From positions 5,296 to 69,295 of the forward strand of contig JAFPEE010000225.1 in the NCBI GenBank assembly GCA_017389705.1: a stretch of 64,000 bases of DNA. The letters are read 5' to 3'. A program made the position numbers and the translations under genes. How positions within the stretch are numbered: the first letter of the stretch is position 1; each line of letters opens with the position of its first letter. The DNA comes from Prevotella sp. GTDB taxonomy: Bacteria > Bacteroidota > Bacteroidia > Bacteroidales > Bacteroidaceae. This document shows, piece by piece, positions 2,628-52,297 of the stretch. The notes under the pieces are model-generated. The model ran no database searches. It saw only the letters and a program-made list of their open reading frames with translations, and was not told where the DNA came from.

Positions 2628-3851
2628 TTACTGATTGTACTGGGCAGTGAGCTCGCAAATCTTGACGACAACCTGCATGGCCTTCTGCATAGACTGGATG
2701 CTGACGAACTCGTAAGGACCATGGAAGTTGACACCACCAGCGAAGATGTTGGGGCAGGGGAGACCCTTGAAAGACAGCTGGGCACCATCCGTGCCACCAC
2801 GGATAGGTTTCACCTTGGGACTGACACCAACCTCCTGCATAGCTCTGAGTACCAGGTCGATGACATGCATCTGAGGGTCGATCTTCTCTTTCATGTTATA
2901 GTATTGGTCGCTGACGATGCACTCGACAGTTCCCTCGCCATACTTCTCGTTCATCTGCTCTGCACAGCGCTGGATGAAGCGCTTGCGGTCTTCGAAACGG
3001 TCCCTGTCATGGTCGCGGATGATATACGACATCTTAGCCTGCTCCACATTGGACTGAATGCCCAGCAGGTGGTAGAAACCCTGGTAGCCATCAGTGGTCT
3101 CTGGAGTCTCGTCAGCAGGTAGCATGTTAGCAAACTCTGCTGCCAGACGGTTGGCATTCACCATCTTGTCCTTGGCATAGCCGGGATGTACGCTGATGCC
3201 CTTGATGGTCATCTTGGCAGAGGCAGCATTGAAGTTCTCGAACTCCAGCTCACCTACATCGCCACCATCCATGGTGTAGGCCCACTCGCATCCAAACTTC
3301 TTGACATCGAAGTGGTGGGCACCCATGCCTATCTCCTCGTCGGGATTGAAGGCAATGCGTATCTTGCCATGCTTGATCTCCTTATGCTCCTGCAGATAGA
3401 CCATGGCCTGCACAATCTCGGCAATGCCTGCCTTGTCGTCAGCACCTAAAAGGGTGGTGCCGTCAGTGACGATGAGGTCCTCGCCTACATGCTGCAGCAG
3501 CTCAGGGAACTTCTTCGGGCTGGAGACAATGCCTTCAGAGAGAAGGATGTCTGAGCCGTCGTAGTTAGAAACTATCTGTGCTTTGATGTCGGCACCAGAG
3601 CAGTCGGGGCTGGTGTCGTAGTGAGAGATGAAGCCAATGGTAGGCACGTCGTCCTTCATGTTACTCTTCAGCGTGGCGTAGAGATAGCCTTTCTCGTCGA
3701 GCTCCACATCGTCAAGGCCTTCGTGCTCCAACTCTTTCTTCAGGTAATCGGCAAACAGCAATTGTTTGCTGGTACTGGGTACAGTCTCGCTCTCCTCGCT
3801 TGACTGGGTATCGAACTTGGTGTAGTTCAAAAAACGTTCAATAATATCCAT
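2628..3851 (-). CDS. pepT: Peptidase T (tripeptidase)
   Basis: [27 protein letters not shown] and NFHG motifs; start moved to MDIIERF, downstream of the promoter. Confidence 0.95.
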
Positions 3852-3877
3852 TTCTTGTTTTAAAGTTTTATAGCATG

Positions 3878-3885
3878 CAAAGGTA
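3878..3885 (-). promoter_or_regulatory. Bacteroidetes sigmaA -7 element of pepT
   Basis: TACCTTTG on the minus strand matches TAnnTTTG. Confidence 0.7.
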
Positions 3886-3961
3886 AACAAAAAAAACAGA
3901 AAAGCCAAATATTCTTTGACTTTTCTTATTTTGTGGTTATTTTCTTCAAATTTCCTGTTTC

Positions 3962-6163
3962 TTAAATCTCAAAGGGAATCACCAGCTTAAAGGTGATGTT
4001 GCGTCCCATGTGATAGACTCCCCTACGTCCTGTGACGTTGTTGACGTCGGCATATTTCAAACGACTCAAGTGATTCTGGTAGGCACGGTTCAGCAGGTTG
4101 TTGGCTGTCACGTATAGCTCGGCAACCTTCTTCTGGCCAAACAAGATGTCGGTACCTAAGGACAGGTTCAGAAGGGTGTAGCCGGGGGTAGGTGTCTCAG
4201 TGTCGTCGGCACTAAAGACGTGACTCTGCTTTAGGTAGCACTCCAGACCTGCCGCAATATAAATATTGTTTAATGATACGAAAGAGGTGAAATGCTTGTG
4301 GTCGGTCTCATGGTTGTGGCCTACGGTGCTATGCTGGTGGTGTGCCAGCTCCCACTTAAGCTCTGAAGTCCAGCGTGGAGCTGGAGTGTAGGGTAGATAT
4401 TTCATGTTGTCAGGCTGGTGCAGCAGCTGGGCATCGACATACGAGAAAGTATTGGCCAGGTGCAGAGAGTGGATGGGGTGGAAGTCTACGCCAGCCTCGA
4501 AACCTAACAGGCGGGCATCTCCCTGAGCATAGGCATAGACGGGATTGTCGTCGATGAAGGTTCCTTCGCCTTTCAGGTAGATATAATTGTCAATCCTATT
4601 GGCAAAGAGTGCCAGCTGTGCGGAGACATAGCGCGAGGTAAAGTCTATTCCCAGGTCGCCCTGCAGACTGTATTCGGCCTTGAGCTGCTGGTTGCCCAGC
4701 TCGTAGCGCAAAGAGCCCTCATGAACACCGTTGGAGGCCAGCTCGCTCATGTTGGGAGTACGAAAGCCACGTGCCACATTGAGTCGTATGTTCAGGTGGT
4801 CGTTCATGTTCCATACTGCTCCCAAGCTACCCGTCAGTCCGTTGAAATGGCGTGTGAAGTCGGTAAAGCGCAGCGCTTCGTCTTCGACGAGCTCATTGCC
4901 ATGCAGGTAGCGGTGGTCGTACCTGACGCCTCCATTCAGTGTCCATCGGTAAAGGGTCTTGCTGACGGTGGCATAAGCTCCGATGTCAAAGAGGCGGTAG
5001 TTGGGGATAAGGAACTCCTCGCCTTTGTTCTGTGACTGCTGCCACATGCCTCCCAGACCTGCTGACAGCTTCCATCCATCCCACTCGTGGGTCAGGTAGC
5101 GGAAGTCGTAGGTAATGGTATGTAGCTTGAGGAACAGCTCTGGCTTCTCTTCTTCCTCTTCAAACTCCTTGCGACGATTCTGCTGATAGCCGATGATGGC
5201 CTTCAGGTAGCCTTTCTCCAGGTTCAGGGAGTTGTCCCACACCAGCTTGTAGTGCTTCACCTGCTGGAAAGGCAGCGTCTTGCCATATTGGCAACCGGTC
5301 CAGCCTTCCTCGTGCTCCAGCTCGCCAGTCTCAGTGTCACGCTCACCTTCCACGATGCCAGGTGTCAGGTGGTGTGAGGTCCAGGTGAGGCGTGAGTGGC
5401 CCCACTGCTTCTGCAGGCCTATCATCAGTCGGCCTGACATCTCCTTGAACTGTGAGCCAGGGACATAGCCGTCGTACTTATTCTTATAGGCGTGAGCCAT
5501 CTTGCCACTCCAGCGGGCATCCCATACAAAGCCATGCTGGTTGCCTGCCATGTTCAGCGAGTAGCCCAGCAGACCATTGTTGGTCTGGTATTCTGTGCTG
5601 GCATCGCCACGCAGGCTACCCTCAGGCAGGATGGGCTGGCTGTGCAGGATGACAACGCCTGCCATGGCGTCAGAGCCATACATCAGTGAGGCAGGGCCTT
5701 TCAGAATCTCAACAGAGCTCACTGCTCCGCCATCTACCTCTACGCCATGCTCGTCGCCCCATTGCTGGCCTTCCTGACGTACACCCTCGCTCATGACAAC
5801 AACGCGGTTGTATCCTAATCCACGGATGATGGGCTTGGAGATGCCGCTACCTGTCGTCAGCTGTGCCATGCCTGGTTGCTTGGCAATGGCATCAATGACA
5901 TTGGTAGACGATGTGGAACGCAGTTCCTTGGCGCTCACTATAGTAATGGGCGTTGTAGAGTTCTTCAGCTTGGTGTCACCGGTAACACCTGTCACCACTA
6001 GCTCGTTAAGCTTCAGGTGGCGAAAGAAGATGTCTGTAGAATCCTCTCCGTGGTGATGTTGCTGTGAGGGTTGTGGCTTGTGGTTATCCTGTGCTGCCAG
6101 AGGGATGCTGACACTCATCAGCCATGCTCCCAAGGCGAGCATTCTTATCATTTTCGATTTCAT
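3962..6163 (-). CDS. TonB-dependent receptor with His-rich segments (probable metal uptake)
   Basis: Signal peptide, LNELVVTG TonB box, plug motifs KPIIRG and [20 protein letters not shown], barrel-type C-terminus. Confidence 0.9.
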
Positions 6164-6300: not shown

Positions 6301-7491
6301 ATGCTCGTTATCTTGGGCATGGTGACCTTCCTCGATCGCATCAACATCAGTGTGGCAGGGTCGAGCATCATGCATGACCTCAATCTGTCACCCTCGCAGT
6401 GGGGATGGGTGCAGAGTGCCTTCATCCTCTCCTACGGACTGATGCAGATTCCCATGGGAGCCTTAGGCGATCGTTTTGGACATCGTAAGATATTGGCTGC
6501 CATTGTGTTATGGTGGTCGTTGTTCACGGCCTTTACAGGCTTGGCAGGAGGACTGGCCTCGCTGTTGGTTATACGCTTTATGTTTGGCATTGGAGAGGCT
6601 GGCTCGTCACCATGCTCGACAGGTGTTATCTCGCGCTGGTTTGAGAAAGGGGAGGTAGGCAAGGCACAGGGCTACGTCTGGGCAGCATCACGTATGGGAG
6701 GTGCTCTGACGCCTTTTGTCGTCATACCCGTAATGATGTCTGTTGGCTGGCGGGCAGCATTCTACCTTTAAGGTGCCATGGGCATTTTGTGGGCTGTCGT
6801 GTGGTATTGGTATTATCGCGACAAGGAGCCTCTTACCGCTCATGCCACACCTATAAGCTCGAAAAGCATCTGGTCGGATATTTTGAAGAATAAGCAGTTC
6901 TGGCTTCTCTGCACCATGTATTTCTTCTATACCTTCGGCTCATGGTTCTTCTTCTCATGGTTCCCTACCTTTATGGAACTGGGACGAGGCTTTGACAAGA
7001 CAGAGCTGACCTATGCTGTCGCTGTACCTTTCATTATGAGTATGATAGGTAATATAGCAGGAGGCCACCTGACAGACCTGCTGACACAGAAGTATGGCAT
7101 CCGCATAGGACGTAAGGCGCTGGGTTCTACATCGTTGGCTGTTTCTGCCGTATGCATGTTCCTTGCAGCCTTCATCCCTGGCAAGATGGCCGTATTCATC
7201 TTCCTGTCGCTTTGCTTTGGTATCTTCGACCTCATGCTGCCCTCTGCCTGGGCCTTGTGTATCGACCTTGGCAAACAGCAGGCAGGAACCCTCTCCGGTG
7301 CCATGAATACAGCTGGCAACATAGGAGGTTTCTGCTGTGGCATTCTCTTTGGCGAGCTTGTACAACAGTCGGGCAATTACAACCTGCCACTCTACATGAT
7401 AGCTCTTATGCTCGTCATCAGTGCCATCCTCTTCGCCTTCATCAATCCCTCCAACCCCATTATCCAGGAAAACACGAGTCCAGGGAAGTGA
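6301..7491 (+). pseudogene. MFS transporter (ACS/sugar-acid type) interrupted by an in-frame TAA
   Basis: ORFs 6301-6771 and 6778-7491 share one frame, separated only by TAA GGT GCC; together they form a complete MFS (FLDRINIS, GALGDRFG, GTLSGAMN). Confidence 0.85.
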
Positions 7492-7548: not shown

Positions 7549-9030
7549 ATGAAGCAGTATTTCTTTGCTGTCGACCTAGGGGCGACGAGTGGACGTACCA
7601 TCTTGGGTACGCTTTCAGACGGGAAGCTGGAGCAGGAGGAGATTACCCGTTTTCCTAACAACCTGATAGAGACAGGAGGTCATTTCTACTGGGATATCTA
7701 CGCCTTGTACTTTGAGATGATTAAGGGTCTGCAGATAGTGGGCAAGCGTGGGTTGGACATTTCCAGCATAGGTATTGATACGTGGGGAGTGGACTTTGTG
7801 TTCATAGGTGAGGATCATGCTATCTTGCGTAATCCCATGGCCTATCGTGACCCCCATACGTTTGAGGCCATAGATGACTATCTGCAGCATGTGAAGGACA
7901 AGAAAACGGTGTACGATATTACGGGCATCCAGTTTATGAACTTCAACTCGCTGTTCCAGTTGCATGCTATGCGTAAGGCTGGCAATTCGGCATTGCAGCA
8001 TTGTAAGAAGGTACTGTTTGTGCCTGATGCGCTGAGCTGGATGCTGACAGGAGAGGCGGTATGCGAGTATACCATCGCCTCAACATCGCAGATGCTTAAT
8101 CCCAAGACGGGTAAACTGTCGGAAGAGCTCATAGAGAGCGTCGGCCTGACTCCTGAGCATTTTGGACGCTTGGTACAGCCTGGAACAAAGATTGGCGTGC
8201 TGACAGAGGAGGTGCAGAAGATAACAGGGCTGGGGCCTGTGCCAGTGATAGCTGTTGCTGGGCATGATACTGCCAGTGCAGTAGCTGCTGTACCTGCCAA
8301 GGACGAGAGTTTTGCCTATCTGAGTAGTGGCACATGGAGTCTGATGGGTATTGAGACCAAGCAGGCGATTATCGATGAGCGCAGCTACGAGCTGAACTTT
8401 ACCAATGAGGGTGGCATAGAGGGTACGACGCGTTTCCTGAAGAACATCTGTGGCATGTGGCTCTATGAGCGCTGTCGTAAGGAATGGCCTGAGGAGGTGC
8501 GCCAGCTGAGTCATCCGGAGCTGCAGGGCTCTGCCATGCAGGTAGAGGCCTTCCGTAGCATTATCAACCCTGATGATGCCATGTTTGCCAATCCTCCCTC
8601 GATGATTAAGGCCATACAGCAGTATTGTCGTGACACACAGCAGGTTGTTCCTGAGACACCTGCGGAGATATGCCGTTGCATCTTCGACTCGCTGGCCTTG
8701 CGCTATCGTCAGGTGTTCGGATGGCTAAAGGATTTCGCCTCGTTCCCACTCGACATGCTACACATCATTGGCGGTGGCTCGCTGAACAAGTACCTGAACC
8801 AGTTTACTGCTGACGCTTTGGGCGTTGAGGTGCTGGCAGGTCCTCAAGAGTGTACGGCTATAGGTAACATCATGCTACAAGCCAAGGCTTCAGGACTGGT
8901 CAGCGACATCTGGGCGATGCGTGCCATTATAGCCAATAGCGTCGAAATGGTATCTTACCATCCGACAGGCGACAAGGCTGCATGGGATCAGGCTTACGAG
9001 AAATATCTAAAAGTAACAAATAAAAAATAA
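7549..9030 (+). CDS. rhaB: Rhamnulokinase (FGGY family)
   Basis: AVDLGATSGR, GIDTWGVD, GHDTASA, SSGTWSLMG and FTNEGG motifs. Confidence 0.85.
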   Translation: MKQYFFAVDLGATSGRTILGTLSDGKLEQEEITRFPNNLIETGGHFYWDIYALYFEMIKGLQIVGKRGLDISSIGIDTWGVDFVFIGEDHAILRNPMAYRDPHTFEAIDDYLQHVKDKKTVYDITGIQFMNFNSLFQLHAMRKAGNSALQHCKKVLFVPDALSWMLTGEAVCEYTIASTSQMLNPKTGKLSEELIESVGLTPEHFGRLVQPGTKIGVLTEEVQKITGLGPVPVIAVAGHDTASAVAAVPAKDESFAYLSSGTWSLMGIETKQAIIDERSYELNFTNEGGIEGTTRFLKNICGMWLYERCRKEWPEEVRQLSHPELQGSAMQVEAFRSIINPDDAMFANPPSMIKAIQQYCRDTQQVVPETPAEICRCIFDSLALRYRQVFGWLKDFASFPLDMLHIIGGGSLNKYLNQFTADALGVEVLAGPQECTAIGNIMLQAKASGLVSDIWAMRAIIANSVEMVSYHPTGDKAAWDQAYEKYLKVTNKK

Positions 9031-9040
9031 TAAGATCATT

Positions 9041-10471
9041 ATGGCAAAACCATTAGTTGAAACCAAAGCAAGAGTAGGTGTGTTCAGCATTGCGCTGGGT
9101 GCATACCTGCCACAGTTCCCTCAACTCGTACCTGAGTTCGAGGCACAGTATGAGACCTTTAAAAAGACGTTGCCCAACACCATTGACATCATTGATGGTG
9201 GCATGGTGACTACCAAGGAGCAGTCGATGGCAGCAGGTGACAAGTTCCGTGCTGCTGATGTAGACCTGGTGATTCTCCAGATGCTGACCTATTGTACATC
9301 TTATAATATGCTGCCTGCTGTTCGTGACCTCGACGTACCTGTTGTGATTGTGAACGTACAGAAGAAACTGGCTCCCGACTATGACAAGACGGACATTCCC
9401 ACCTGGCTGGGCGAATTGTATGCCTGTGGTGCCATTGGCGAGATGGTGGCTGACCTGAATCGTGCCGGCAAGCGCTCTGCTGTCATCACTGGCGTAGTAG
9501 AGGGAGGCGACCCAGAGGTACAGGCAGAGATAGAGGACTGGTGCCGTGCAGCACAGGTGCGTCGTCGTTTCCGCGATACGAATATAGCCCAGATAGGTCG
9601 TCCCTATCCAGGCATGATGGACCTCTACATTGACGAAACCAACCTCTACCATCGTATGTTTGTCTATACCAAGCAGTTCGATTGGGAGCAGATGTGGGCT
9701 ATTGCTGACAATATCACTGACGAGGCCGCTATCAAGGCCAAGGCTCAGGATATTTTGGACACCTTCGACATCGAGGGTGGGGGAACCATTGAGAAAGTGT
9801 GGGATATGGCCAAATACGTCGTTGCCTTCGAGCAGTGGGTCAAGGACGAACAGCTGGGTATGATTGCCTCGCACTACGCTGGCTTCGCACAGGGTGTAGC
9901 TGGCAAGCTCGACTCTATGCTGATTCCTGCCTTCTCGATGCTCATCAAGCAGCATACTGCTTGTGCAGTAGAGGGCGACATGAAGGTGGCTATGGCCATG
10001 TCGATTCTGAAGACCATCTCAGGCACAGGTACGCTGGCTGAGATGTACTCTATTGACTTCCCGAAAGACATCTGCATCATTGGCCACTCTGGCTCTGGCG
10101 ACTTCGATATCTCGCAGGCCCACAAGCCTACGATGAAGATTGTGCCCGTGTTCCACGGGAAGACGGGAGGTGGCTATCTGACGCAGTTCTATCCTCCCAC
10201 GGGTCCTGTGACCTATCTGGCCATTACACAGGACAAGAACGGTGTCTTTAAGTTTGTGGTGGCTGAGGGCGTGAACGAGGAAGGACCTATCTTTACCTTT
10301 GGCGACACCAACATGCGCACCAAGTTCTCGCTGAGCTGTCGTGAGTTTGTCAACAAGTGGAGTGAGGCAGGTCCTACGCATCATATGGCAGCAGCTGTGG
10401 GTCATCATATCGACACCATTCTGAAGGTTGCCAAGATTTTCAACATAGAGTGTGACGTAGTTTGTCGTTAA
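9041..10471 (+). CDS. L-fucose/L-arabinose isomerase family protein
   Basis: CAVEGD, IGHSG and GPTHH metal-site motifs of the FucI/AraA fold; not RhaA-like. Confidence 0.8.
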   Translation: MAKPLVETKARVGVFSIALGAYLPQFPQLVPEFEAQYETFKKTLPNTIDIIDGGMVTTKEQSMAAGDKFRAADVDLVILQMLTYCTSYNMLPAVRDLDVPVVIVNVQKKLAPDYDKTDIPTWLGELYACGAIGEMVADLNRAGKRSAVITGVVEGGDPEVQAEIEDWCRAAQVRRRFRDTNIAQIGRPYPGMMDLYIDETNLYHRMFVYTKQFDWEQMWAIADNITDEAAIKAKAQDILDTFDIEGGGTIEKVWDMAKYVVAFEQWVKDEQLGMIASHYAGFAQGVAGKLDSMLIPAFSMLIKQHTACAVEGDMKVAMAMSILKTISGTGTLAEMYSIDFPKDICIIGHSGSGDFDISQAHKPTMKIVPVFHGKTGGGYLTQFYPPTGPVTYLAITQDKNGVFKFVVAEGVNEEGPIFTFGDTNMRTKFSLSCREFVNKWSEAGPTHHMAAAVGHHIDTILKVAKIFNIECDVVCR

Positions 10472-10476
10472 TTATA

Positions 10477-10510
10477 AGAGGTGAGAGGTAAGAGGTGAGA
10501 GGTAAGAGAA
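10477..10510 (+). repeat. Heptamer array AGAGGT(G/A) x~5, left arm of a 34-bp inverted repeat
   Basis: agaggtgagaggtaagaggtgagaggtaagagaa is the exact reverse complement of 12355-12388. Confidence 0.95.
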
Positions 10511-10543
10511 ATGTTCTAATGGCAGAGAAGGGTGCGCAAGCTA

Positions 10544-10576
10544 TTCTCTCATCACTTACCTCTCACTAATCACCTC
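10544..10576 (-). repeat. Degenerate inverted copy of the heptamer array
   Basis: ttctctcatcacttacctctcactaatcacctc; 8 mismatches in 33 nt versus the distal arm by manual alignment. Confidence 0.8.
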
Positions 10577-10592
10577 AAAAATAATAACGTTT

Positions 10593-11930
10593 ATGAAAAA
10601 AGAAGGAAGTTTAAAAAGTACTATTGCAGTTTCACTTACTAATTATTTGGATGCAGGTGCAATTGTGGCTGGTGGTAGTGGTTTAACACTATGGCAGAAC
10701 TATCTCGGCTTGTCTGAAATGCATCTCGGTTGGTTGAACTTTATTAGCGCAAATGCTTTAGGTGCTGCTATAGGTGCCATTATTGGAGGCTTTTTAGCCG
10801 ACAAGTATGGTCGTAAGTTTATATTTACGTATAACCTTTTGGTGTATATGACGGGAGTATTGCTTATCATGTTAAGTGTTAATTTCCCTATGTTGTTATT
10901 GGGCTTCTTGGTCACAGGAATCTCAGTTGGTGTCGGTGTGCCTGCTTCGTGGACGTATATCTCTGAGTCATCCGAGGTCAACAACCGAGGTCGTAACATC
11001 TGTATCTCGCAGATGTCATGGGGCATCGGTCCGATGATAATTCTCCTATTGGGGATGCTATTAGCTCCTGAGGGTGTACTTTTCGGATGGGTTAAAAGTG
11101 TTGCTGGGATATTTATAGAGACCGCAACTTTAACCGATGCTGTTAAAGTTTTCTCTTCTCGTATAGTATTCTTCTCACTGTTCGTTGTTGCATTTATTGC
11201 TTGGAATTTGCAGCGTGGCTTGCAGGAAAGTGCTGAGTTTACTGCTCAAAAAAACACAGGTGAGAAACAGAATGGTCTAATGGATAATATCCGCCTACTG
11301 TTCACCAATAAGGTGGCTGTTAAAACGGTCTGTTTCTTAGCAGGCATTTATCTTACTTGGAATCTTGTTGCATCAGTGATGGGCTTCTTCCAACAGCATA
11401 TCTATGAGAAAGTGGGAGGCCTGACAAATGCAGAAGCAAACTGGGCAAGTTGCATACAATGGGCAGTTATTGTAGGAATAACTTTTATAACTTCTAAACT
11501 TATTGATAAAATTGAGCATAAGTTAATTTATGTGTTTGGGCTTGTCATTGCAATTTTGGCATGGATAGTTGTATTAGAGCCAGGCGTTGATACTACTTTT
11601 GGCTTATGGGCATTTGCTATTCTGTGGGGTATTCAGGGCGGAACGTCCGTTCAGATATTCTATGCTCTGTGGGGCTCAGAACTTTTCCCTGCAAAGTTTC
11701 GTGCCGGCGCACAAGGTTTCATGTTCTTCTTAGTACGTGGTTTATGTGCTTTTGGTGGTTTAACGTTTACACATATTTTTGGAAAAGAGGGTGAGGGTCT
11801 AATTACAGCAGCTTATATTATGATGGCTTTATTGGCAATATCATTAATAGTTGGAGTTGTCGGTTCTCCGAAAACTCGCGCAAGATCTCTTGAAGAGATA
11901 ACTAAAGAACGTTATGGCGATAATTATTGA
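10593..11930 (+). CDS. MFS sugar transporter, IolF/RhaY-like
   Basis: TIAVSLTNYLDAGAIVAG, GGFLADKYGRK, ASWT and SELFPAKFRAGAQG resemble Bacillus IolF; AT-rich codon usage. Confidence 0.8.
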   Translation: MKKEGSLKSTIAVSLTNYLDAGAIVAGGSGLTLWQNYLGLSEMHLGWLNFISANALGAAIGAIIGGFLADKYGRKFIFTYNLLVYMTGVLLIMLSVNFPMLLLGFLVTGISVGVGVPASWTYISESSEVNNRGRNICISQMSWGIGPMIILLLGMLLAPEGVLFGWVKSVAGIFIETATLTDAVKVFSSRIVFFSLFVVAFIAWNLQRGLQESAEFTAQKNTGEKQNGLMDNIRLLFTNKVAVKTVCFLAGIYLTWNLVASVMGFFQQHIYEKVGGLTNAEANWASCIQWAVIVGITFITSKLIDKIEHKLIYVFGLVIAILAWIVVLEPGVDTTFGLWAFAILWGIQGGTSVQIFYALWGSELFPAKFRAGAQGFMFFLVRGLCAFGGLTFTHIFGKEGEGLITAAYIMMALLAISLIVGVVGSPKTRARSLEEITKERYGDNY

Positions 11931-11948
11931 TGTGTTGAGAGAGTTGGC

Positions 11949-12314
11949 ATGAATGATTTCTATTACAGAAAACTTGTTGTTTACCATAAGTCAATGGAAC
12001 TTGTAAAGAGGGTCTATCAGCTAACAGAATCATTTCCTTCTTCTGAGCGTCATGGACTGACGAATCAGATACAGCGAGCAGTGATATCAATCCCTTCCAA
12101 TATTGCAGAAGGAATGGGGCGTTTCTCAAATAAAGAGCGTATTCACTTCTTGGAAATTGCTAATGGTTCATTAATGGAGGTAATGTGTCAATTGGAGGCC
12201 TCATTACTGCTTGGCTATATCTCTCAACAACAATTCGATGAACAAGAATTATTTATATCAGAAACCACAAGAATGTTGGTTGCATTAAGAAAGACATTCG
12301 AAGATAAAGTATAA
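11949..12314 (+). CDS. Four-helix-bundle protein (23S rRNA IVP / TIGR02436 family)
   Basis: L.VY.KS, FP..E.HGLT.QIQRA.ISIPSNIAEG and FLEIANGSL.E signature. Confidence 0.92.
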   Translation: MNDFYYRKLVVYHKSMELVKRVYQLTESFPSSERHGLTNQIQRAVISIPSNIAEGMGRFSNKERIHFLEIANGSLMEVMCQLEASLLLGYISQQQFDEQELFISETTRMLVALRKTFEDKV

Positions 12315-12354
12315 CACAAGGTGTAGGAAGAGGCAAAAGGCTGCGAATTAACAA

Positions 12355-12388
12355 TTCTCTTACCTCTCACCTCTTACCTCTCACCTCT
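12355..12388 (-). repeat. Right arm of the perfect 34-bp inverted repeat
   Basis: ttctcttacctctcacctcttacctctcacctct. Confidence 0.95.
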
Positions 12389-12400
12389 AAAAAGTATATT

Positions 12401-13222
12401 ATGAAAAGTATATTAGAAGGCCGTCCCGAGTTGAAGGCTGTTATTGATCAGATTGCCGAGGTGACGGGATACCTCTGGCAGAAAGGATGGGCAGAGCGTA
12501 ATGGTGGTAACATCACCGTCAACGTCACGGAGTATATGGATGAGGAATGCAAGTCCATGGAGGCCATCTCGCCAGTGAAACAAATCGGTCTGACGCTGCC
12601 CCAGCTGAAAGGTAAGTATTTCTATTGCAAGGGTACAGGCAAGCGCATGCGCGACCTGGCTAAGGAACCCATGCAGAACGGTTCCATTATCCGCATCTGT
12701 GACGACTGTGCCTCATACGAGGTGATAGCCGATGTGAACGTGGTGCCCACCTCGGAGCTGCCTACTCATCTGGCGCTACAGAACTACCTGTTAGAGACGG
12801 GCTCATGCTATAAGGCAACGCTGCATACACACCCTATCGAGCTGGTGGCCATGAGCCATATACAGCGTTTCCTGAAGGGTGACGAAATGACACGTGTGCT
12901 GTGGTCTATGATTCCTGAGACATTGGCCTTTGCTCCCCTGGGTATAGGCATAGTGCCTTATGCCATGCCTTCGTCAGTAGCACTTGCTGAGGCTACCCTG
13001 GAGCAGATTAAGACACACGATGTGGTGATGTGGGAGAAGCATGGAACGGTTGCTGTAGGACAGGACATCATGGATGCCTTCGACCAGACCGATGTGCTCT
13101 GCAAGGCTGCCAACATCTACATGTGTGCCCGCTCGATGGGCTCCGAGCCTGATGGCATGACCTTCGAGCAGATGAAGGAAGTGCAGGATGTGTTCAACCT
13201 GCCAAAGAAACGTCCTTGCTGA
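12401..13222 (+). CDS. rhaD: Rhamnulose-1-phosphate aldolase (class II)
   Basis: KGWAERNGGN, PTSELPTH, HTHP and WEKHG motifs. Confidence 0.9.
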   Translation: MKSILEGRPELKAVIDQIAEVTGYLWQKGWAERNGGNITVNVTEYMDEECKSMEAISPVKQIGLTLPQLKGKYFYCKGTGKRMRDLAKEPMQNGSIIRICDDCASYEVIADVNVVPTSELPTHLALQNYLLETGSCYKATLHTHPIELVAMSHIQRFLKGDEMTRVLWSMIPETLAFAPLGIGIVPYAMPSSVALAEATLEQIKTHDVVMWEKHGTVAVGQDIMDAFDQTDVLCKAANIYMCARSMGSEPDGMTFEQMKEVQDVFNLPKKRPC

Positions 13223-33020: not shown

Positions 33021-33422
33021 GGGGTTGACTGGATTTGACAGCAAGATGAGATGGTACGTAAGCATGCGGAGTGACGGCTGTATACTCCATAATCCATTCG
33101 GTCGAACAATTAATTGGCGAAAACAAGTACGCTCTCGCTGCCTAAACGAAGTACAGTAGTTTACTGGCTTAATTCCCTTACAAGGTGAGGGAACGAGACA
33201 TCGCTCCAAGGACGTGGTTCCGAATCTGAGGATCAAGCGGTGCAGGATTCATCGGAAATAGTTTCCCGGGTGCTCCGACTGGGGAATGAAATTTTAGGAG
33301 ATAAGGTTGTTGATGGGTGGTCCAGGTCTTGTCACAGCACGAAAATGAAGTCTGGAATAAGCATGTAGAAAGCGTATGGTTTCCTTGTTTGGACGAGGGT
33401 TCGACTCCCTCCAGCTCCACAA
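33021..33422 (+). ncRNA. ssrA: tmRNA
   Basis: 5' GGGGTTG pairs with CAGCTCC (G3-U70); T-arm GAGGGTTCGACTCCCTC; tag ORF 33116-33145 reads (A)GENKYALAA*. Confidence 0.97.
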
Positions 33423-38837: not shown

Positions 38838-40519
38838 CAGATAATATCATATCGCCTCTTGGGCTGACGTCAGAGGAGAACTACCAGGCTGTCAAGGCTG
38901 GTCGCTCTTCCCTTCGTCGCTATGATGACCGCTGGGGACTACCACATCCATTTACCGCCTCCTTGTTCTCCGACCAGCAAACACGGTCGTTAGCCGTTGA
39001 GGGCATGACTCGTTTCGAGTCACTTGCCGTCCGCTCTGTTCAAGAGGCTGTCGAGGGTAGCGGGATAGACGTAGCCAGCCCTAGGGTTGTCTTTCTGCTG
39101 AGCACAACGAAGGCAAATATAGATGGCCTGGCCACCTCTTCCTCCGCTTTCGTATCGCCAAGCGTAGCAGCAAAGCGTATTGCCGTCAGGCTCGGCCTCG
39201 TAACGGAACCTATCGTCGTCTGCAACGCCTGTATTTCGGGTGTGTCAGCTATTGTGCTGGCTCAAAGACTATTGGAGGCCGACAGGTATGACTATGCAAT
39301 CGTGTGTGGTGCCGACGTGCAGAGTCGTTTCACCATTTCAGGCTTCGCGTCGCTGCAGGCTCTTTCCGTAGCAGCGTGTAAACCCTTCGACGTAGAGCGC
39401 ACAGGCCTGAATCTGGGTGAGGCTGCAGCTACCATCGTCTTGGGGAACAGGAAGCCAAACCGTTCCGCCGGTCATTATTGGGTGATAGCAAAGGGTGTCG
39501 TTCGCAATGATGCTTTCCACATGAGTTCTCCTTCCAAGCATGGCGAGGGCGCTACCCGTGCATTGACAGCCGTTGCCTCCCACCTTAGCTCATTGGCATT
39601 TATCAATGCCCATGGTACGGCCACATTGTTCAACGACCAGATGGAGTCCGTAGCTATTGAACGGGCAGGCTTGAGTCATGTTCCTGTAAACGGACTGAAA
39701 GGCTATTTGGGTCATACGTTAGGTGCTGCAGGCGTTTTGGAGACCATCTTGTGCATGAAGTCTGCCGACGACCATACCATTCTTGCCACTCGAGGCTATC
39801 AGGAGAAAGGTGTATCAGGCCATATCTCTATCGCGTCAGACCATATATTCACTTCCAGCACCAGCTTTGTGAAGATGATTTCAGGCTTTGGAGGTTGCAA
39901 TGCGGCATTGTTCGTCACTAAGATGGCACCGCCCCCCCAACAGCTAACAGCTAACAGCCAACAGCTAACAGCCAAAAGCCACATAAAGATAACTCCTTCA
40001 GGGGTGTCGTTGGATGGGAAAGCGCTGGTGTGCTCTGCTAAAGGACCAGCCTTGCTAACCAGTCTGTATAAGCAGTTCGTTGGCGACTATCCCAAATATT
40101 ATAAGATGGATCCGCTGAGTCGTTTAGGCTTTGTGGCTTCGGAGCTGTTGCTCAGGCAGGAGTCAGACCATCCGTGCCAGGACACCAGCGACAGGGCTGT
40201 CATCCTGTTCAACCACTCATCATCCATCATGGCCGACAGGCTCTACCAGGAGTCCATACAGCATCAGGAAAACTATTTTCCCAGTCCTTCGGCCTTTGTC
40301 TATACCTTACCCAATATGGTCACAGGCGAGATCGCTATCCGTCATCATTATTACGGCGAGACATCATTTTATATATTGCATCATCGTGACGACCTGCTCA
40401 TGGAGCACATTGTCAGCGCGTCGTTCGCAGACGGAGACACGAAGAGTGTCCTCAGCGGATGGCTCGACTACGAGGACGACAGCCATTTCGAGGCAGACTT
40501 GTTTATTGCAGAACGTTGA
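38822..40519 (+). CDS. Ketosynthase fused to a C-terminal chain-length-factor-like domain
   Basis: NACISG, HGTAT and GHTLG; second domain YPKYYKMD...FPSPSAFVYTLPN. Confidence 0.85.
   Translation: MVYHIADNIISPLGLTSEENYQAVKAGRSSLRRYDDRWGLPHPFTASLFSDQQTRSLAVEGMTRFESLAVRSVQEAVEGSGIDVASPRVVFLLSTTKANIDGLATSSSAFVSPSVAAKRIAVRLGLVTEPIVVCNACISGVSAIVLAQRLLEADRYDYAIVCGADVQSRFTISGFASLQALSVAACKPFDVERTGLNLGEAAATIVLGNRKPNRSAGHYWVIAKGVVRNDAFHMSSPSKHGEGATRALTAVASHLSSLAFINAHGTATLFNDQMESVAIERAGLSHVPVNGLKGYLGHTLGAAGVLETILCMKSADDHTILATRGYQEKGVSGHISIASDHIFTSSTSFVKMISGFGGCNAALFVTKMAPPPQQLTANSQQLTAKSHIKITPSGVSLDGKALVCSAKGPALLTSLYKQFVGDYPKYYKMDPLSRLGFVASELLLRQESDHPCQDTSDRAVILFNHSSSIMADRLYQESIQHQENYFPSPSAFVYTLPNMVTGEIAIRHHYYGETSFYILHHRDDLLMEHIVSASFADGDTKSVLSGWLDYEDDSHFEADLFIAER
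39939..39980 (+). repeat. Six heptamer units AACAGC(T/C) in a coding linker
   Basis: AACAGCT AACAGCT AACAGCC AACAGCT AACAGCC AAAAGCC, preceded by C7. Confidence 0.95.
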
Positions 40520-49870: not shown

Positions 49871-52297
49871 ATGGTAACATTGGTACTTCGTATATTCGAC
49901 ATGATGCGCAGGCGCAGGCTTCTTCGGTCGCTATCGCTGCTGCTCTTCACCGCATTACTCCTGGTGCCGCTGACTATCCATATGGCTGGCGGTACCTTCT
50001 CTTCGTCAGAGGATATTACCGACTTCCTGCCTGCCGAGTCAGCAGACTATCGCGAGGCAATGGAGGCTTGGAAGAAGTCGCCAGAGACCAGCAGGATTGT
50101 CGTCCTGTTCAGCCAGAAAGCTAATAGCGCTCGCAACGCCACACTCTCAAAGAGAGAAAAGCTCCCCCAGGCCATCGACCGCTTCACCAGTCTCCTTGAG
50201 GAACGTGACACGACAAGAATGGTACACGACTTGATAAGTCAGGTCGATATGGAGCAGATGGCCAGACAGATGTACCAGCGTGTGCCTTTACTCCTGACTG
50301 ATTCCGACTATGCCCGTGCCGACAGTCTGCTCAGCGACAGCAGCTACATCTTGCGTCAGCTGAGGGCCGACAAGCAAATGTTGCTGTTGCCCATGTCAGG
50401 AATGCTGACACAAAGCCTGCAGTATGATCCGCTGAACCTCTTCACCCCTGCTCTGCAGCGGCTGCAGGGCCAACAGAGCGCTCTGGTTATGCTGACTTCG
50501 CCCTACGGTAGCAGTGAGACGGGACAGAACGGCAAGCTGACAGATCTGCTGAACGATTGCATACAGCAGGTACAAAGAGATATTCCTGAAGTCAGCATCC
50601 ACTTGACGGGTGCTCCTGTCATCGCTGTCGGCAATGCCCGTCAAATCAAGGCCGACAGTTTGCTGGCCGTATCGCTGGCTGTCGTACTTATAGTCTGCCT
50701 GCTCTTCGTGACCTTTCGCCAGGTGCGTAACATCGTTCTTATTGTGCTGTCGATAGGTTGGGGTTGGCTCTTTGCCGTCGGAACTATGCTACTCATCAAC
50801 ACACAGGTGTCTGTGATAGTAATAGGTATATCGTCTGTCATCCTGGGCATTGCTGTCAACTATCCGCTACATCTGACAGCTCATCTGCGCCACACCACCG
50901 ATGTCCGTCAGGCCTTGAAGGAGATAGTGATGCCCCTGTTGGTGGGTAACGTGACAACGGTAGGTGCCTTTCTGGCCCTCGTTCCGCTGGATGCTGTTGC
51001 CCTGCGTCATCTGGGGCTGTTCAGCTCACTGCTACTCGTAGGTACTATTCTGTTTGTACTCTTATGGCTTCCTCACATGGTGAAACCTGCCGCCGCACCA
51101 CCTGCCTCAGTTCGGTGGCTGGAGCGCGTGAGCAGTCTGACGCTGGAGAACAAGCGCTGGTTGGTTGGCGTGGTGACGGTGCTGACCATTGTGCTAGGCT
51201 ACTATAGTTTGCAGACAGGCTTCGATGCTGACCTCAACCACATTAACTACATGACTTCTGAGCAAAAGCTAATAGCCAACAGCCAACAGCCAACAGCTAA
51301 CAGCCAACAGCTAACAGCCATCTGGAACTCCTTCGTTTCTCGTCATGGTGCCTACCTCCAGTCGGCAGTCACGGAGGCTGCCCGTGCTGAGGGCTTTGCC
51401 GACCATACCTTCGACGGTTTTTTCTCACTGCTTACACCGCTGGCTCCCAAGGCGCCTCCGCTCTCCACGCTGGTCACCCATCTGTCTGCTGACTTCAACT
51501 ACATAGGCTGGGCTTGCGGGCTCATCGTATTCTTCTTCCTATGGTTTTCGCTGGGGAGCATTGAGTTAGCCCTGCTCTCCTTCCTGCCCATGGCCGTCAG
51601 CTGGATATGGATTCTGGGTATCATGGTGCTGTGTGGTATTCAGTTCAATGTCGTCAACATCATTCTGGCTACTTTTATCTTTGGACAGGGTGACGATTAT
51701 ACTATCTTTATGACCGAAGGTTGTCAGTATGAGTATGCCTATAGGCGCAAGATGCTGGCGTCTTATAAACACAGCATCATCATCTCGGCACTGATTATGT
51801 TCATTGGTATAGGCACGCTCATCTTTGCCAAGCATCCTGCCCTGCATTCGTTGGCTGAGGTCACCATGGTGGGCATGTTCTCCGTAGTCCTGATGGCCTG
51901 GCTCTTTCCGCCACTCATCTTTCGATGGCTGGTATGTGACAGACAGGGCTATCGACGACAGCCTATAACGCTGCGTACCCTACTTCTGCGTCTGTTGCCA
52001 TGGGTCCATGCTACGGAAGACCCCTTCCGTTTGGTGGCAGACCGCTACCGCTATCGGGGGGTCGAGATTTCATCGGCTGTGAATCGAAGACTGCGTCAAC
52101 TGCGTCATACGCAGCTTGCTCTCACTGCTCAACTGACGGATGAGGGTTGGGGGGAGACAGCCCTTTTAATGGCATTGCAATATCCTGATACCATCTTTAC
52201 CGCCTCTATTGCAGACCCTGACCGTCTGCTGATGGCACGATATGCCGCTGAGGGCTTGGCCCCCAACCTTACCTTTATTCCTAAAGAAAACTCTTAA
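49871..52297 (+). CDS. MMPL/RND-family exporter (shortened)
   Basis: Two TM bundles with GIAVNY and FGQGDDY; large periplasmic loop. Confidence 0.85.
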   Translation: MVTLVLRIFDMMRRRRLLRSLSLLLFTALLLVPLTIHMAGGTFSSSEDITDFLPAESADYREAMEAWKKSPETSRIVVLFSQKANSARNATLSKREKLPQAIDRFTSLLEERDTTRMVHDLISQVDMEQMARQMYQRVPLLLTDSDYARADSLLSDSSYILRQLRADKQMLLLPMSGMLTQSLQYDPLNLFTPALQRLQGQQSALVMLTSPYGSSETGQNGKLTDLLNDCIQQVQRDIPEVSIHLTGAPVIAVGNARQIKADSLLAVSLAVVLIVCLLFVTFRQVRNIVLIVLSIGWGWLFAVGTMLLINTQVSVIVIGISSVILGIAVNYPLHLTAHLRHTTDVRQALKEIVMPLLVGNVTTVGAFLALVPLDAVALRHLGLFSSLLLVGTILFVLLWLPHMVKPAAAPPASVRWLERVSSLTLENKRWLVGVVTVLTIVLGYYSLQTGFDADLNHINYMTSEQKLIANSQQPTANSQQLTAIWNSFVSRHGAYLQSAVTEAARAEGFADHTFDGFFSLLTPLAPKAPPLSTLVTHLSADFNYIGWACGLIVFFFLWFSLGSIELALLSFLPMAVSWIWILGIMVLCGIQFNVVNIILATFIFGQGDDYTIFMTEGCQYEYAYRRKMLASYKHSIIISALIMFIGIGTLIFAKHPALHSLAEVTMVGMFSVVLMAWLFPPLIFRWLVCDRQGYRRQPITLRTLLLRLLPWVHATEDPFRLVADRYRYRGVEISSAVNRRLRQLRHTQLALTAQLTDEGWGETALLMALQYPDTIFTASIADPDRLLMARYAAEGLAPNLTFIPKENS
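50130..50158 (+). repeat. 29-bp intragenic stem-loop element, copy 5
   Basis: ctcgcaacgccacactctcaaagagagaa, preceded by agaaagctaatagcg (identical to 43999-44013). Confidence 0.9.
51264..51319 (+). repeat. Eight heptamer units AACAGC(T/C) inside the MMPL gene
   Basis: AAAAGCT AATAGCC AACAGCC AACAGCC AACAGCT AACAGCC AACAGCT AACAGCC. Confidence 0.95.

Follow-up and report, generated by a model that had tools for sequence, protein, structure and literature searches.

We analysed a 64,000-nucleotide stretch of a Prevotella assembly (3.5 Mb, 51% GC, 86% completeness), hereafter the window, in which a sugar-catabolic operon contains a perfect inverted repeat built of heptamers (Table 1). The left arm (L) begins 5 nt after the isomerase stop codon (10469-10471), and the right arm (R) ends 12 nt before the aldolase ATG at 12401. 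The two arms are exact reverse complements (34/34), and the inverted repeat stretches to 47 nt at 91% identity. The heptamer pattern AGAGGTR has six overlapping matches across the window, all within L and R, and none in 100 shuffles. A preliminary description of this DNA had reported a perfect 34-bp repeat enclosing only an AT-rich MFS gene and a four-helix-bundle (4HB) gene, without transposase or target duplication, and these observations hold. Profile matches identify the two enclosed genes, and GC content is 37-41% inside against 52% outside (MFS 0.407, 4HB 0.366, isomerase 0.520, aldolase 0.527); the GC counts given there, 16/60 at 11461-11520 and 34/60 at 9481-9540, were both exact on recount. 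A domain search of the enclosed and neighbouring genes detected no transposase domain. No target duplication was seen at the arms, either as a direct repeat outside them or by eye when filled and empty spacers were compared. What had been overlooked is that L also pairs locally with a decayed copy, L', giving a 100-nt hairpin in the spacer between isomerase and MFS.

Table 1. Genes and repeat features of the operon, in window coordinates
Feature	Position	Strand	Remarks
Rhamnulokinase-like FGGY kinase	7549..9030	+	First gene of the operon stretch examined; Pfam FGGY_N/C; TIGR02627 509 bits, slightly below cut-off
Sugar isomerase, L-arabinose/L-fucose isomerase superfamily	9041..10471	+	Not RhaA type; 92-97% amino acid identity in relatives
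L arm	10477..10510	+	About 4.9 AGAGGTR heptamers; left arm of the empty hairpin, perfect complement of R
Empty-hairpin loop	10511..10545	+	Both ends match sub-terminal sequences flanking the 4HB gene in the gene-bearing unit (spacer comparison)
L' arm	10546..10576	+	Decayed L complement (80-90%); closes the local hairpin (predicted -45.7 kcal/mol, z -6.4)
MFS transporter, sugar-porter-like	10593..11930	+	Native operon position; AT-rich allele, GC3 0.35
Spacer, 18 nt	11931..11948	+	Inner (left) arm of the 4HB unit missing here; arm present at the same place in G087 and L099/L100
Four-helix-bundle protein gene, 121 aa	11949..12314	+	PF05635/TIGR02436
3' sub-terminal segment of the 4HB unit	12315..12354	+	Conserved relative to G087 and metagenome relatives
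R arm	12355..12388	+	Right arm of the 4HB unit; complement of L
Rhamnulose-1-phosphate aldolase (rhaD)	12401..13222	+	NF002963 300 bits, cut-off 170

Several other features of the window were recorded. Directly upstream of the kinase, at 6301-7491, an MFS_1 gene is split by an in-frame TAA (6769-6771) into parts of 156 and 237 aa, and is either a pseudogene or the product of an assembly error. A polysaccharide deacetylase gene follows the aldolase; the metagenome contig L098 has a HEPN/nucleotidyltransferase pair there instead (3489-4180). A tmRNA gene lies at 33021-33422 (RF00023, 134 bits) and was the only match to reach threshold in an Rfam search of the window, with no rRNA and, elsewhere, sub-threshold matches to generic hairpin models. 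Two arrays of CAGCYAA-type heptamers (39937-39981 and 51264-51318) lie on the same strand, 11 kb apart, and overlap long frames that are possibly spurious.

Comparison with relatives changes how the inverted repeat should be read. The MFS gene is an ancestral operon gene in its native place, not imported cargo, because the order isomerase-MFS-aldolase is conserved in at least 10 species. Genome G015 carries neither element, its spacers measuring 4 nt between isomerase and MFS and 33 nt between MFS and aldolase. Both spacers are filled in G087, which has the layout isomerase-[arm-loop-arm]-MFS-[arm-4HB-arm]-aldolase, AGAGGTR units as at our locus and a 4HB protein 88% identical to ours. Among the metagenome contigs with the closest MFS alleles, the inner arm between MFS and 4HB gene is kept in L099 and L100 and absent in L095-L098, as it is at our locus. 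The retention in G087, L099 and L100 of an arm that has been lost here shows that the 34-bp repeat is made of the left arm of the first element and the right arm of the second, the two elements being separate. The ends of the empty-hairpin loop match short sequences between the arms and the 4HB gene, and empty hairpins at other places repeat these sub-terminal words; judged from these matches, the empty hairpin is best understood as a deletion derivative of a gene-bearing unit whose interior is gone.

The enclosed segment also has a history of exchange between species. The MFS proteins of relatives are 80-100% identical to one another, with GC3 of 0.56-0.70, whereas ours is only 74-79% identical to all of them. 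Its AT-rich allele belongs to a small clade that is always found between high-GC flanks. Between our locus and L095, DNA identity is 85% in isomerase and aldolase, 95% in the MFS gene and 98% in the 4HB gene, rising about 50 nt inside the MFS gene and falling about 25 nt beyond the R arm. When L099 is compared with L100, the isomerase genes match at 87% as far as the stop codon; the sequences are then 100% identical from the first base of the L arm until the inner arm is reached, which shows a difference of one repeat unit. Three of the four mapped breakpoints thus lie at or beside an arm, an association that is suggestive only. We considered whether the arms are the exact ends of the exchanged segment and rejected it: this holds for L099 against L100 and fails at the left end for our locus against L095. 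Read from these alignments, the process is allelic replacement within a conserved operon. The earlier proposal of a "recombination cassette" therefore keeps limited support where it concerns arm-delimited segments exchanged between species, and loses it where it concerns cargo delivery. The AT-rich allele class (GC3 0.35-0.38; our locus and L095-L100) occurs in several species with high-GC flanks, its alleles differing by about 20% in DNA. Either these alleles were imported repeatedly from a low-GC donor or their AT-richness is maintained locally.

These observations weigh on the explanation first offered for the locus, in which one unit bounded by the 34-bp repeat had delivered both the MFS gene, as cargo, and the 4HB gene to an operon without them. 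The perfect arms and the sharp GC drop between them invite that idea, as does the higher identity of the MFS-4HB segment (95-98%) relative to its flanks. But every relative examined, whether it has arms or not, carries an MFS orthologue at the corresponding position, G087 and L099/L100 still have the inner arm, and the left breakpoint against L095 falls within the MFS gene instead of at the L arm. The empty-site alleles that had been proposed as a check exist as presence/absence polymorphism at each spacer separately, as in G216, where a full hairpin fills the isomerase-MFS spacer that is 4 nt long in G015 (MFS proteins 94% identical). An isomerase followed directly by the aldolase, with no MFS gene between them, was not found among the 300 genomes of the genus searched. 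A single cargo-carrying cassette is thus very improbable, and the case carries a caution, since two neighbouring elements with the same arms can mimic one. It is more doubtful still that the 34-bp repeat acts as a switch by making the 1.9-kb segment invert. Perfect arms 1.84 kb apart could support homologous inversion, but no dedicated invertase lies nearby, and the layout has the same orientation in all 7 of the 7 relatives that carry it.

The 4HB protein is a clear member of its family, scoring 125 bits against PF05635 (cut-off 33.8) and 119.5 against TIGR02436 (cut-off 24). It matches PDB 2GSC with an E value of 3e-22, a similarity to the solved pentameric Xcc0516, and the residues Q40, R43, S47, N51 and E54 (motif R..S...N..E) are invariant across 21 sequences. 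Profile searches found no nuclease, transposase, recombinase or HUH domain in it. The same genome holds a second PF05635 gene between inverted arrays of a different heptamer (contig C212) and a gene remnant among further arrays (C202).

The association of this family with inverted arrays extends well beyond the genome at hand. We scored the flanks of 33 PF05635 loci from 30 Prevotella genomes as inverted repeats, with flanks paired across loci as the control: the median score was 17 against 7.5 for mismatched pairs, and 24 of the 33 exceeded the 95th percentile of the control. A multi-phylum sample, biased in that it consists of the best 80 matches to a Prevotella-derived profile, gave a median of 15.5 against 7.5 for mismatched flanks, with 54 of 78 loci above the 95th percentile. 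These 78 loci come from Bacteroidota, Acidobacteriota, Planctomycetota, Clostridia, Chloroflexota, Pseudomonadota, candidate phyla and others. The arm unit is 7 nt long in most phyla and 7 or 8 nt in Prevotella. An arm holds between 2 and 19 copies (median about 4), and the two arms of a locus often differ in number, so that the suggestion of five heptamers per arm matching the five subunits of a pentamer fails. The 4HB genes are intact, and their GC content lies below that of their flanks at 76 of 80 loci, yet tracks host GC (r 0.86).

In a tree of 35 4HB proteins, those from one insertion site group together (10 label changes, compared with 20.8 after shuffling), a pattern that fits mostly vertical descent of the genes. 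The repeat-unit family nevertheless goes with the clade of the 4HB protein even where insertion sites differ, and two distant clades are represented at one site. In three cases (L184, G087:C32; L189, G017:C2; L187, G051:C1), 4HB genes lie inside long composite blocks of nested or repeated hairpin modules. Earlier work has noted PF05635 genes between cas genes (PMC3936711); in a literature search of incomplete coverage, we found none described within heptamer arms in operon spacers.

Short tandem arrays are themselves abundant in Prevotella. Tandem Repeats Finder detected 182 period-7 arrays of 67 unit families in our genome, where period 7 far exceeds neighbouring periods. Fourteen adjacent inverted array pairs were found in this genome, 6 of them short hairpins and others enclosing ordinary host genes. 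Of 101 Prevotella genomes, 28 contain AGAGGTR arrays, a patchy distribution in which a few genomes carry very high numbers, and the two strands hold about equally many. Given these arrays, the arms at our locus are one instance of a genus-wide repeat class. The survey of PF05635 genes that had been suggested succeeds in finding inverted arrays around most of the loci sampled, while heptamer arrays as such are special neither to this locus nor to 4HB genes.

Some individual arrays were noted in passing. A near-perfect inverted repeat of about 45-50 bp with GTTACYT-type heptamers surrounds a 2-kb segment with frames on both strands (G000 C214:14662-16702), possibly an invertible or mobile segment judging by this layout. 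Nine sense AGAGGTR units end exactly at the ATG of a minus-strand gene at G000 C5:4907-4969, where no inverted partner lies nearby. AGAGGTR-type arrays also occur inside coding sequence, at G000 C218:4763-4778, in L036 (G008:C29) at 5162-5186 and in L041 (G008:C155). The G008 rhamnulokinase alignment is 11 residues longer at the array site, so in-frame arrays can be tolerated within proteins. A GC-rich, TGCGCA-like word was seen again in several hairpin loops.

The arms could also be by-products of a genus-wide tendency to form operon spacers from slipped 7-8-nt tandem repeats, kept alike by gene conversion among neighbouring copies and serving as unstructured or tunable translation leaders in a phylum that does not rely on Shine-Dalgarno sequences, the 4HB gene being incidental. 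The 182 arrays of 67 families in one genome are in keeping with this, and in eight relatives both operon spacers are made up of direct arrays that differ from species to species and stop a few bases short of the start codon. TAACTGA-type repeats of Beggiatoaceae, Cyanobacteria and Bacteroidetes likewise form intergenic arrays of 2-40 heptamers, often just before start codons (PMC4679880). Slippage leaves unexplained, however, why PF05635 flanks are inverted and mutually complementary in many phyla, and why it is the pyrimidine-rich strand of the arm that stands directly upstream of the aldolase start. We regard it as an unlikely account of the locus. A likeness of the AGAGGTG unit to a Shine-Dalgarno sequence was also considered and rejected, as other loci use unrelated units.

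A stronger case can be made for mobile DNA, with arm-4HB-arm units autonomous and empty hairpins non-autonomous, in the manner of REPIN/RAYT systems or MITEs; the 4HB protein would bind the arms and promote copying or insertion. The clean difference between filled and empty spacers in G216 and G015, close relatives by their MFS proteins, is what such an element would leave, as are patchy, occasionally very high copy numbers on both strands and a sub-terminal sequence common to hairpin copies. The correspondence of unit family and 4HB clade across sites, the presence of two distant clades at one site and the low GC of the 4HB genes relative to their flanks point the same way. Against this, nuclease, transposase and recombinase domains are all missing from the 4HB protein, no target duplication was found, and the clustering of 4HB genes by insertion site fits mostly vertical descent. 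A REPIN/RAYT-like model, in which AGAGGTR hairpins would need a cognate 4HB gene, also fails in three of the five genomes richest in them (G017, 99% complete; G081; G050), which have no 4HB gene bearing AGAGGTR arms; G050 has no PF05635 gene at all. We therefore consider the explanation as a whole rather doubtful, although mobility as such is still plausible given the filled and empty spacers and the patchy bursts of copy number.

The remaining evidence concerns RNA. The predicted duplex energy is -70.9 kcal/mol for L-R against -39.9 kcal/mol for L-L', and in the predicted minimum free energy structure of the whole 1.94-kb RNA all 34 L positions are paired with R. The local L-L' hairpin would form first during transcription and may pre-empt pairing of L with R. 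An RNase III gene is encoded in the genome. One RNA-library contig is identical to 11850-12118, spanning the junction between MFS and 4HB genes, and could be contaminating DNA. Contigs from public RNA runs cover small shares of the stretch, and those with cross-arm joints differ in their loop letters and derive from other loci that share these arms; no strand-changing joint appeared among the joints listed. G.U pairs at arm mismatches number 96 on the sense strand against 145 on the antisense strand, or 26 against 32 by locus, counts that include loose alignments extending past the arms. As there is no sense-strand G.U bias, maintenance at the DNA level, whether through gene conversion or through templated copying, is just as possible as selection on the sense RNA.

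Taking these lines together, we think that the locus probably consists of two adjacent stem-loop elements, an empty hairpin and a 4HB unit, which would be mRNA counterparts of ribosomal intervening sequences (IVS) and uncouple cistrons through RNase III-type processing. The two would be neighbouring members of one family whose stems are inverted arrays of short tandem repeats. The first, at 10477-10576 in the isomerase-MFS spacer, would derive from a gene-bearing unit by deletion; the second, in the MFS-aldolase spacer, has lost its inner arm here, leaving only the right one. The AGAGGTR unit common to both makes their outer arms a perfect 34-bp repeat around the MFS gene of the operon and the 4HB gene. 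Both units would be transcribed within the polycistronic message, and their arms would pair into a long duplex, a likely substrate of RNase III, with cleavage in the stem expected by analogy with the Coxiella IVS. Such cleavage would uncouple the neighbouring cistrons and release or limit the 4HB message, with a presumed effect on expression and perhaps some role for the 4HB protein. Though unproven, an IVS-like interpretation accounts for the 4HB unit better than any other we have, and a purely regulatory role of the RNA does not explain why the same arm family stands at many loci in some genomes. The proposal of an mRNA "intervening sequence" in the preliminary description thus gains from the occurrence of the 4HB family in heptamer stems, as in 23S rRNA, and from the predicted preference for L-R pairing, but not in its form of one element spanning both genes.

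More tentatively, and with clearly less confidence than in the reading just given, PF05635 genes, inverted heptamer arms and empty hairpins may form one widespread, undescribed class of selfish stem-loops, found in operon spacers and in 23S rRNA. Such a class would partly explain the excess of heptamers, and its arms, identical in different species, would provide portable homology for swapping neighbouring host genes from one species to another, the AT-rich MFS allele at our locus being an example. It would offer one explanation for PF05635, a family of unknown function with many thousands of members, for rRNA IVS, and for the heptamers of Bacteroidota, Cyanobacteria and others. In Prevotella, a dominant genus of gut and rumen, stems inside metabolic operons could set the relative expression of neighbouring genes, and could also mark places of allele exchange between species.

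Several known systems share parts of this organization. The Avd protein of diversity-generating retroelements has a related four-helix-bundle fold, and our 4HB protein weakly matches the bAvd and Avd models, although at 35 bits against a cut-off of 80. Its gene has as neighbours the kinase, isomerase, MFS, aldolase and deacetylase genes, with neither an adjacent reverse transcriptase nor a template/variable repeat pair. The transposase and target duplication that define insertion sequences and MITEs are likewise lacking at our locus.

The likeness to REPIN/RAYT systems goes further. RAYTs are HUH Y1 transposases flanked by their own repeat, and the repeat population depends on the cognate gene. 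These systems combine a single gene between inverted copies of a repeat with dispersed hairpin doublets, mostly vertical inheritance of the gene and a lineage-specific repeat type. The 4HB gene similarly lies between inverted copies of a repeat that is also found as dispersed hairpins, is inherited mostly vertically and has clade-specific units. Unlike RAYTs, it encodes no HUH or other catalytic domain, many hairpins occur without a cognate 4HB gene, and the arms are tandem arrays instead of one palindrome.

The closest parallel is provided by the ORF-bearing IVS of 23S rRNA in Coxiella burnetii and Leptospira, which carry a member of the same protein family in the loop, terminal inverted repeats and a long stem with heptamers. 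The Coxiella IVS has a 28-bp terminal stem cut by RNase III, and a variable number of tandem heptamers (2-3) before the S23p ORF; an AG-rich sequence precedes the ORF in ORF-bearing IVS, for which a selfish or once-mobile origin has been proposed (PMC4990558). A terminal stem of this kind is found across the PF05635 family and in the G087 unit, while at our locus the partner arm lies 1.4 kb further upstream and the stem also spans a host gene, the inner arm being lost. The host RNA differs as well, being a sugar-catabolic mRNA and not a 23S rRNA with an insertion in helix 25 or 45. Heptamer arrays on their own also have precedents. Geobacter metallireducens has paired tandem-repeat sites on opposite strands at variable distance (PMC2700814), and we found no mention of PF05635 beside arrays in that paper or in the one on TAACTGA repeats (PMC4679880). 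PF05635 genes between cas genes, the paired sites of Geobacter and the heptamers before start codons were each known separately; what appears to be new, as we found no earlier account in the literature searched, is their joining into operon units in which a gene lies within a heptamer stem.
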